IMG/VR virus record: IMGVR_UViG_2534681697_000018 | Span: 1-23,995 of that record | DNA: 23,995 nt | Origin: a virus | Taxonomy: Duplodnaviria > Heunggongvirae > Uroviricota > Caudoviricetes | Strand: one strand, 5' to 3' | In this document: positions 3,001 through 6,000 of the stretch, piece by piece | Layout of the letters: every line of letters starts with the position of its first letter | How positions within the stretch are numbered: the first letter of the stretch is position 1 | Position numbers: made by a program

Positions 3001-6000
3001 GGCGATAGCAGCAGGGTTAAGGCGTCCAGCAAGCTGGATTTACCCCACGCGTTCTCCCCAATCAGGACGTTGTTTTGTTCCAGCATCAACGACAAACGGT
3101 TGATACCGCGAAAACCCACAATTTCAACGCGCTCAAGAATCATATCCCCTCCAGAAATATGTGACTTATCCTTTACGCTGGCAGTATAACGGGAAAGGCC
3201 TTGCTAATACGTGATGACATCACATTTAAGCATGGCAAATGTCTGAAAAATGAGCGAATAATCGCGTTATACTCCCTCTTGCTGATAAGCCCGCAAAAAC
3301 AACAAAATCAAATAATTAGCATGATAAATTATTTTTTATTACGCCTAAAGGATTAAATCTTTTGCTTGCACTACACTGTCAATCAGACAAATGACTATAT
3401 GGGGCAACCCGCTGTTGCCCTAAATCAAATTTACTGGATTTATTTATCTGGTGAATGACTCGCCTTCGTTTTTAAAATAGCCGCGCATTATTTCCGTCGT
3501 CATTTTTTTACGACGACCCTATAAAACGACCATATTTTTCACAGGGTCAATTTTTAATTGAGGTGGATATGTTCAGAAAATTAGCAGCTGAATGTTTTGG
3601 TACTTTCTGGCTTGTTTTTGGTGGTCATTTTAACCCGGCGGTCACTATTGGTTTATGGGCTGGCGGACGTTTCCCGGCAAAAGAATTCGTTGGCTACGTA
3701 ATTGCCCAAGTTGTCGGCGGTATTGTTGCAGCGGCGCTGCTGTATTTAATTGCCAGTGGTAAAACGGGTTTTGACGCGGCAGCCAGCGGTTTTGCTTCTA
3801 ACGGTTATGGCGAGCATTCACCAGGCGGTTATTCCATGCTTTCCGCGCTGGTAGTTGAACTGGTATTGAGTGCGGGCTTCCTGTTAGTGATCCACGGTGC
3901 AACCGACAAATACGCTCCGGCAGGTTTTGCGCCGATCGCTATTGGTCTGGCCTTAACCCTGATTCACTTAATCAGTATTCCGGTGACTAACACTTCTGTT
4001 AACCCGGCGCGCAGCACCGCGGTTGCTATCTTCCAGGGCGGCTGGGCATTAGAACAACTGTGGTTCTTCTGGGTGGTGCCAATTGTCGGCGGCATTATCG
4101 GTGGTCTGATTTACCGGACCCTGCTGGAAAAGCGTGATTAATTAGCATTGGCATTTTATCTGCCCTGGTTGTTTTATCTTCGACATTACAAACCGCACGG
4201 GTATTGGTGGCGTCAAAATCGCTGAAGCGTTCCCCGAAGGCCGGGGCAGCCCACATGGATGTGGGCTGAGGGCGCGTCTTACAGGACGTTACCTCGCGCC
4301 CGACCCGGTTGCCGAAGGGGATAAGCTGAAGGTACCGCGCAGCGGCGATTTTGTTCGCCAGAGCCCGGGGGTGCAGGGCTGAGGAATCCCCAGAAAACGA
4401 GACAGACATAGCATTATGTGATCTACTGATTTGTGCCAACAATTCAATGAGATCACTGCTATGCCTGTTCATAAAGTATGTCAGAATTTCTTCCGGGATG
4501 CCTTAGCACCATTTCATCAGTACCGACAAAATGCCCTGATGGATGCCACAGTGGCGTTAATCAACGGAGCATCTCTGACGCTGACCAGTATCGGACGTTT
4601 TTTGCCGGGTAATGCACAAGTTAAGAATAAGATCAAACGTATTGATCGCCTCATGGGTAATGAGGCGCTCCATCGCGATATTCCAATGATTTTCAGGAAT
4701 ATCACTTCAATGCTGACACGGCAGTTATCTTTATGTGTAATAGCCGTAGACTGGAGTGGCTATCCCTCCCAGGAGCATCATGTTCTTCGTGCCAGCCTTC
4801 TGTGTGACGGGCGTTCCATTCCGTTATTGAGTAAGGTTGTTCCTTCTGAAAAACAAAATAATCCATTGATACAACATGATTTCCTTGATTCCCTTGCTCA
4901 ATCCCTGCCCCCCGATGCCAGGGTTATTATTGTCACGGATGCTGGATTTCAGAGCGCATGGTTTCACCATATTACTTCTCTGGGCTGGGATTTTATTGGT
5001 CGGATCAGAAATAACGTTCAGTATTGCCTCGATAACGCGCCTGAAAGATGGTTAAAAGTGTCGGATAGCCCTGAATGTAAAACACCGGAATATATGGGGG
5101 CTGGAAGGCTGGTTAAAGAAAGGAAAAAAAGCATCCGGGGGCATTTTTACACCTATAAGAAATCGGCAAAAGGGCGAAAAAAGAAACGTTCGAAAGGTCA
5201 GAGTGGTTTAAACAAAACAGACAAAGAACAGAGCAAATCAGCAAAAGAAGCCTGGTTGATCTTCAGCAGTACAAATGACTTCAGAGCGCGAGAAATCATC
5301 AAGTTATACAGTCGGCGAATGCAGATTGAGCAAAACTTTCGTGATGAAAAGAACGGGCGCTTCGGATTTGGTCTTCGGGCCAGCAAAAGTCGTTCAACAG
5401 GAAGAATTCTGGTTCTGAGTCTGCTGGCAACGTTGAGCACTATCGTAATGTGGTTACTCGGTTATCACGCTGAAAATAAAGGGTTACACCTGAAATATCA
5501 GGCTAACAGCATTAAATCCCGGCGGGTTATCTCATATCTGACGTTAGCGAAGAATGTTCTTCGACACTCGCCACTTATTTTAAGACGAACAGTACTGAGC
5601 ACAGTTCTAAACCATCTGTCCAGAACCTACCGAAATATGGTGCTGGTTTATTAGCAGTAATTTTGTGGGGATCCCTCAGCCCTGAGGGGGCTCCCGGAAA
5701 CGTCCCACGGTGCGAGCTGCATCTTAAATCAGGTGTGGTAAAACTGTTTGACCCTCTCACTCCGGAACTGTTACGGGCGCTAATCCGCGAAATGAAAGGG
5801 GGTATCCGATGATAACGCTGCCGACCGGTACCAAAATCTGGATCATCGCTGGCATCACAGATATGCGTTGTGGCTTCAATGGCCTGGCTTCGAAGGTGCA
5901 GAACACGCTGAAAGATGACCCGTTCTCCGGGCATATCTTCGTCTTCCGGGGCCGCAGTGGCAAAATGGTGAAAATACTGTGGGCCGATCGTGACGGGTTA

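Follow-up and report, generated by a model that had tools for sequence, protein, structure and literature searches.

ISSfl1 is an insertion sequence (IS) of the IS4 family, named here as in RefSeq annotation, and its closest described copies are those of Shigella pINV plasmids and of Escherichia coli FDAARGOS_943. A complete copy is present in the window analysed here, a stretch of 23,995 nt (IMG/VR record IMGVR_UViG_2534681697_000018) that constitutes the entire contig AERN01000091.1 (contig 91) of draft assembly GCA_000193915.2, listed as Shigella boydii ATCC 9905 (PMC6397287). In the window, this copy stands between the region downstream of aqpZ and the remainder of an IS66-family element, ISSfl3, and is made up of one half each from two distinct, ordinary ISSfl1 insertions: insertion A, at GGTGCAGGG between aqpZ and lysO, and an insertion in an ISSfl3 hot spot, at CCCTGAGGG. 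The link between the two halves was most likely made by the assembler and not by the cell.

When compared with the ISSfl1 copies of the pINV plasmids and E. coli FDAARGOS_943, the window copy (4379–5679) showed at least 99.5% nucleotide identity over all 1301 bp, the same ends and the same 397-amino-acid (aa) transposase; identity to the FDAARGOS_943 copy, annotated as 'IS4-like element ISSfl1 family transposase', was 99.9%. The copy is full length and collinear with six other copies (four differences at most), and the terminal inverted repeats at its CTGAGG...CCTCAG ends (CTGAGGAATCCCCAGAAAA and CTGAGGGATCCCCACAAAA) match at 17 of 19 bases. Base 5327 is a T in the window copy, and among the compared copies only those of S. 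boydii ATCC 35964 share it. The transposase is a DDE transposase of the IS4 type: it matched the NCBIfam IS4 model NF033591 with 362.8 bits (cut-off 152), and Pfam DDE_Tnp_1 is on record for its open reading frame (ORF).

Within the IS4 family, the nearest well-known group is IS10/Tn10. The ISSfl1 transposase is 35–37% identical over >90% of its length to the IS10A and ISVsa5 transposases, and the ends of IS10, like those of ISSfl1, begin CTGA..ATCCCC. The original prediction, which described an IS10-like element with recognisable inverted ends, thus used a fair label for what is only a distant relative of IS10. Both elements share a 9-bp target duplication and a preference for symmetric targets, but the consensus differs: IS10 targets follow GCTNAGC, whereas all ISSfl1 targets resemble CC(C)-N3-(G)GG, and some ISSfl1 copies have 10-bp duplications. 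No Rfam match to the IS10 antisense RNA families was obtained, and an Rfam scan of positions 3300–6200 returned no meaningful RNA family. The features around the junction are:

3569..4141, plus strand: aqpZ with an in-frame 123-bp deletion, 190 aa against 231 (from translation and alignment to O157 aqpZ)
4142..4378, no strand: left part of the native aqpZ–lysO spacer; 4370–4378 (GGTGCAGGG) is the left half-site of insertion A
4379..5679, plus strand: ISSfl1, complete, 1301 bp; left inverted repeat at 4379–4397, right inverted repeat at 5661–5679
4461–5654, plus strand: ISSfl1 transposase, 397 aa, intact DDE; 407 aa with a TTG start at 4431
5680..7809, plus strand: ISSfl3 (IS66 family) without its first 624 bp; begins within tnpA, at base 625 of 2754
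5680–5812, plus strand: tail of ISSfl3 tnpA, last 133 nt only
5680..5688, no strand: half-site CCCTGAGGG of a separate ISSfl1 insertion, in ISSfl3 tnpA; duplicated around a reversed ISSfl1 in ATCC 35964

The copies of ISSfl1 in the draft were located by an exact-match look-up of the window transposase, which returned 12 places, all of them in the ATCC 9905 draft; the draft therefore holds at least 12 near-identical copies. Intact target duplications were present at six of the 12. Elsewhere, copies with duplications just outside CTGAGG...CCTCAG fix the ends of the element: the duplication is CCTGAAGGG in IS100 on pINV plasmids, CCCGCGCGGG (10 bp) in puuE of FDAARGOS_943, and GGTGCAGGG and CCCTGAGGG at the two copies of ATCC 35964. 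Since the other copies have duplications, this type of element makes them, and the window copy is the exception. Its flanking 9-mers differ, as the original prediction had reported, with GGTGCAGGG (4370–4378) on the left and CCCTGAGGG (5680–5688) on the right. When its ends were redefined, no 9- or 10-bp duplication was found at any shift. The five bases by which the inverted repeat seemingly runs further (4374–4378 and 5680–5684) are flanking DNA, resulting from the preference for symmetric targets of the CCC...GGG type. Duplications measured 9 bp in some ISSfl1 copies and 10 bp in others (two groups of five copies compared), and some copies had one mismatched or extra base immediately after the right end.

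The S. boydii ATCC 35964 chromosome (CP026875.1) was the closest complete genome and was used as the reference; its strain is that of the neighbouring plasmid accession, CP026876.1. Outside ISSfl1, over 17.2 kb, three single-nucleotide polymorphisms (SNPs) and three homopolymer indels separate it from the window, and it shares the aqpZ deletion. Each of the two half-sites belongs to an ordinary insertion in this chromosome. At locus A, the order is aqpZ...GGTGCAGGG/ISSfl1/GGTGCAGGG-ggcggcggcg...lysO-hcp-hcr-poxB, a simple insertion with a perfect 9-bp duplication, and window positions 1–5679 match this locus at 99.965%. The aqpZ–lysO copy, where a deletion had been proposed, is thus a plain insertion in ATCC 35964. 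At locus B, the order is vgr...ISSfl3 left 624 bp-CCCTGAGGG/ISSfl1 reversed/CCCTGAGGG-ISSfl3 remainder-prophage, again with a perfect 9-bp duplication, and this locus carries the same IS600 insertion as the window. As recorded in CP026875.1, the ISSfl1 copies of the two loci are directly repeated, with 2.29 Mb between them. The window follows the coordinates of this chromosome upward to 4,079,709 and then downward from 1,788,060; the new flank is therefore not collinear with the old one, as an adjacent deletion would have it, and the polarity of the junction relative to CP026875.1 is that of an inversion (head-to-head).

Both flanks were also identified. Bases 4100–4378 are the native aqpZ–lysO spacer, 99.3% identical to E. 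coli O157:H7, in which the spacer continues past the half-site as ggcggcggcgactgg... and lysO begins 220 bp on. The left flank had been recognised as the region downstream of aqpZ, which proved accurate; a missing IS66 left end was also considered for this flank and ruled out because it is native spacer. On the right, the element indeed abuts the tail of an IS66-family tnpA: positions 5680–7809 are 99.7–99.9% identical to annotated ISSfl3, starting at its base 625. Unlike intact ISSfl3, the copy in the window lacks the left end and most of tnpA, and of the two terminal inverted repeats that, with an 8-bp duplication, mark the family only the right one is present; in ATCC 35964 the absent parts lie across the reversed ISSfl1. 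The uninterrupted site in intact ISSfl3 reads gagcgCCCTGAGGGggctc, and the CCCTGAGGG target is the centre of a 19-bp near-palindrome, gagcGccctGagggGgctc, in tnpA. Taken as written, then, the contig does not hold a simple insertion, a point on which the original prediction stands.

The missing partners of both half-sites were found elsewhere: that of GGTGCAGGG on contig 104, and that of CCCTGAGGG on contigs 38 and 15 as well as in ATCC 35964. Contig 104 (AERN01000104.1, 8186–21409) reads pINV parB-parA-IS100 istB-CCTGAAGGG/ISSfl1/GGTGCAGGG-lysO-hcp-hcr-poxB; its right side is 100% identical to ATCC 35964 over 5975 bp and its left side 99.9% identical to a pINV plasmid. The claim that lysO and neighbouring core genes had been lost is therefore contradicted by the same assembly, in which these genes follow the right end of an ISSfl1 copy and GGTGCAGGG. 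Contig 15 has an ISSfl1 followed by the missing left part of ISSfl3 and vgr. Nothing was lost; the pieces sit on other contigs, attached to ISSfl1 copies. As the lead-in to lysO on contig 104 carries the left half-site of the pINV parAB-IS100 insertion, the flanks are permuted among contigs. Contig 104 itself represents either a pINV plasmid integrated in ATCC 9905 or another repeat-induced chimera, and its virulence-plasmid part also includes an IS1 fragment.

The permutation extends to the ends of the element. The ISSfl3 remainder is attached to the left end of ISSfl1 in ATCC 35964 and on contig 38 and to the right end in the window, and on contig 15 the left part of ISSfl3 is attached to the ISSfl1 right end; the ISSfl3 remainder has thus not stayed at the IS end of its parental insertion. 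Contig 38 starts just 692 bp inside ISSfl3. IS flanks that carry halves of different duplications, between other IS elements in an IS-rich genome, are what the window has in common with IS-mediated rearrangements in Shigella and with repeat-induced chimeras of draft assemblies. A flank at the 'wrong' IS end, judged against ATCC 35964 and another contig of the draft, sets it apart and is beyond what plain recombination between the known copies can produce.

The ISSfl3 stretch of the window is likewise a mosaic of SNPs from different copies and not the orthologous allele. Relative to orthologous prophage-adjacent copies it carries two SNPs in 2.1 kb, whereas unique DNA has one in ~15 kb. At positions 6460 and 7022, all three prophage-adjacent ISSfl3 copies examined have A, and the window has C and G, respectively. 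Among the copies examined, 7022G was otherwise found only in the intact rpsQ–rplN ISSfl3 of ATCC 35964, and 6460C was also present in the ISSfl3 copy on contig 5. A related genome has at least 10 copies of ISSfl3. ISSfl1 itself offers no sequence differences by which a crossover could be located: bar one homopolymer indel, the copy in the window is the same as the two of ATCC 35964 and nearly all of those in the draft.

The junction was not reproduced in other records. A 49-aa ORF spanning it is on record only on the window contig, and none of 72,556 plasmids contained the junction. Exact-pattern scans of genome and metagenome contig collections gave no junction and carry no weight, because even the right end of ISSfl1 has no exact match in the genome set. 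The site of the join, inside multi-copy repeats, and its absence from CP026875.1 and the other records searched are what a chimeric contig would show. For the ISSfl3-left junctions of ATCC 9905, a search for homologues of the truncated TnpA (184 aa) gave no listing, the exact protein not being among its matches.

Taken together, these observations incline us, with some reserve, towards a contig mis-threaded by the assembler through two stacked multi-copy IS elements. The assembly path would cross the 1.3-kb ISSfl1, whose copies are identical, and then directly the 2.1-kb ISSfl3, and would so connect flanking sequences that lie apart in the chromosome; both the absent duplication and the 'truncated' IS66 element would then be products of the contig path and not of a deletion. 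We favour mis-threading because a switch of copy is needed inside each of the two repeats, because the flanks are permuted with contigs 104, 38 and 15, and because the junction was not reproduced.

Several points weigh against it. In a genome like that of ATCC 35964, no overlap of reads could yield the ISSfl1 right end directly against CCCTGAGGG-ISSfl3; either graph nodes were crudely concatenated, or ATCC 9905 has a real second ISSfl1 insertion in the opposite orientation. The assembler paired flanks correctly for six ISSfl1 copies, and since the flanks of insertion A are largely unique, mate pairs should have linked aqpZ with lysO if these were adjacent. IS-mediated rearrangements are, moreover, common in Shigella.

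A possible, though distinctly less probable, explanation is that real homologous recombination among ISSfl1 copies produced the join in several steps, involving an extra ISSfl1 of opposite orientation at the CCCTGAGGG hot spot, the aqpZ–lysO copy, the pINV IS100 copy and an exchange within ISSfl3. The outcome would be an inversion, a translocation or a plasmid integration, possibly of pINV at locus A, without loss of lysO. Of the two processes that the original prediction had offered, adjacent deletion and inter-IS recombination, the second thus stays in play; the first is contradicted by the presence of lysO on contig 104 and by the inversion polarity. Several of the observations above are what such a history would leave. 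Each flank carries half of a genuine duplication, the partner of GGTGCAGGG standing beside lysO on contig 104, and that contig joins pINV parAB-IS100 to lysO as a plasmid integration would. The polarity of the junction relative to CP026875.1 is of the inversion type, and the six other ISSfl1 copies were resolved by the assembler, yet aqpZ is not linked to lysO. The hot spot is a near-palindrome of 19 bp, ISSfl1 has used a ~275-bp intergenic repeat in both orientations, and ISSfl3, with the copy number seen in the related genome, offers many potential targets.

The recombination history is, however, costly. Approximately four to five independent events would be needed since the split from a strain that differs by about one SNP per 15 kb of unique DNA, and two exchanges internal to repeats (one in ISSfl1, one in ISSfl3) would have to adjoin. 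As homologous recombination never changes the IS end to which a flank is attached, the window junction either needs the second, opposite hot-spot ISSfl1 or lacks a physical basis. Such an insertion leads one to expect a reciprocal junction of the ISSfl3 left part-CCCTGAGGG with the ISSfl1 left end, which was absent among the 12 intact copies of the draft, an assembly that may lack copies with repeats on both sides. Nor does the window have the aqpZ-ISSfl1-IS100 junction that simple integration of a plasmid would give. Simple recombination between copies A and B of ATCC 35964 was also considered and rejected: these are direct repeats, and a crossover between them would attach aqpZ to the left part of ISSfl3, in reverse complement, instead of to the remainder.

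It is unlikely that the junction was made by transposase, with the right end of the aqpZ–lysO ISSfl1 attacking the CCCTGAGGG hot spot and the left flank remaining unchanged, a route comparable to IS10-type adjacent deletion or inversion using sister-chromatid ends. IS10 promotes adjacent deletions at low frequency, the right junction coincides with the 9-bp boundary of a site at which ISSfl1 insertion is proven, and the left flank is the original one. Against this, the predicted product, ISSfl3 left part-CCCTGAGGG/left end...right end/GGTGCAGGG-lysO, was not found; lysO is preceded instead by an ISSfl1 with a pINV IS100 left flank, and on contig 15 it is a right end of ISSfl1 that adjoins the ISSfl3 left part. 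Contig 38 already has the left-end/CCCTGAGGG-ISSfl3 junction, so the site had been occupied before. We consider highly improbable the more elaborate variant of a real transposase junction, in which ISSfl1 uses the ISSfl3 near-palindrome both ways or flips there, by end-swapping or in-situ inversion, so that the flank held by a left end in ATCC 35964 would have passed to a right end in ATCC 9905, a change beyond the reach of homologous recombination, together with a megabase inversion and virulence-plasmid integration at the aqpZ–lysO copy.

Least credible of all is an IS-mediated adjacent deletion of lysO together with nearby core genes and the 5' part of the IS66 element. In its favour are the lack of a duplication around the window copy and of lysO on the window contig. 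Against it, lysO-hcp-hcr-poxB-ltaE are present in the same assembly at the matching half-site, the missing 624 bp of ISSfl3 lie beside vgr on contig 15, the DNA between the old and new flanks is thus still in the genome, and the polarity is head-to-head relative to ATCC 35964 and not collinear. Two findings that had been named beforehand as fatal to a deletion did not turn up, since redefined ends gave no duplication and intact ISSfl3 does possess the upstream 624 bp; the deletion fails because of the presence of lysO, the insertions in ATCC 35964 and the polarity.

The finding is an ordinary one: ISSfl1, ISSfl3, IS600 and IS4 are catalogued elements, and both candidate mechanisms, assembly error and recombination, are well known. 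IS copies whose flanks do not match are commonplace in Shigella, be they the work of the cell or of an assembler, and have little biological weight. That a draft contig from an IS-rich genome lacks a target duplication does not show that genes were lost. If the join were real, it would be an inversion or plasmid-integration junction in ATCC 9905, mainly of interest to users of that strain.

Two further ISSfl1 copies of the draft have unmatched flanks. On contig 38 (AERN01000038.1, 345–2368), the ISSfl1 right end lies inside an apparent hyi (hydroxypyruvate isomerase), a gene identified by eye from the translation; the half-site at this junction had no match among the 12 copies. In ATCC 9905, hyi may truly have been disrupted, or DNA deleted, in association with the IS. 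On contig 33 (AERN01000033.1, 58119–71342), an ISSfl1 without duplication stands between hemB and genes for an AraC-type protein and a pyridine-nucleotide oxidoreductase, presumably the K-12 ykgA/ykgC region. With the gene order of K-12, this copy would fit a real deletion by way of the IS, of ~70 kb and with the lac region in it.

The left flank of the window contains part of a repeat. Positions 4186–4378 belong to a ~275-bp intergenic repeat that occurs several times per E. coli genome (median four places) and has no Rfam match. In a second copy of this repeat, on contig 81 (AERN01000081.1, 5859–6133 with the IS removed), ISSfl1 occupies the identical 9-bp site, inserted the other way round; there the site reads CCCTGCACC, the reverse complement of GGTGCAGGG. 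Two insertions at the same site indicate that the repeat holds an ISSfl1 hot spot. Near-identical 194-bp flanks are joined to the left end of ISSfl1 in one repeat copy and to the right end in the other.

Upstream of the spacer, the deletion point in aqpZ lies at ~3615–3625, between short TGGTGG repeats, and the 41 aa lost precede the first NPA motif. The NCBIfam aquaporin Z match accordingly covers only profile positions 59–230. Because these 41 aa are removed, the truncated AqpZ channel is probably inactive. The identical truncated protein is on record on only eight contigs, the window contig and CP026875.1 among them, all apparently from one S. boydii lineage, and can therefore serve as a lineage marker. 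A 192-aa form of AqpZ with a GTG start was not on record.

The remaining features of the window are:

1..109, minus strand: terminal ~108 nt of an IS4 copy in macA, inside which the contig starts; the sequence ends ...gatcggcatta at ~108
5809–6156, plus strand: ISSfl3 tnpB, intact (NF033819, 125.6 bits)
6176–7777, plus strand: ISSfl3 tnpC, intact (NF033517, 465.3 bits)
7809, plus strand: right end of ISSfl3, ...ggggcgcttac, a typical GTAAGCG... terminus
7810..23440, plus strand: late (tail and baseplate) region of a Mu-like prophage, starting just past the major head gene
~9774–11037: IS600 copy (IS3 family) in the prophage tail genes, with a 3-bp duplication, ctc
23441..23995, minus strand: right end of a second, inverted ISSfl3, within which the contig ends

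Both ends of the contig are thus inside IS elements, an IS4 copy at the start and an ISSfl3 copy at the end, as is expected because drafts break at repeats. The sequence at the start is presumably an IS4 end; in ATCC 35964, IS4 ORFs (Nterm_IS4, DDE_Tnp_1) split macA at the same site. The IS600 copy sits ~100 bp upstream of the tail sheath gene (11136–12611), and the same insertion is present in ATCC 35964 and absent from S. boydii ATCC 49812 and CP026824.1. The two inverted ISSfl3 copies point their right ends at each other from either side of a 15.6-kb module of tail and baseplate genes; the prophage head genes that precede this module in intact relatives are missing here. The two ISSfl3 copies of the window differ from each other at positions 7426 and 7436.

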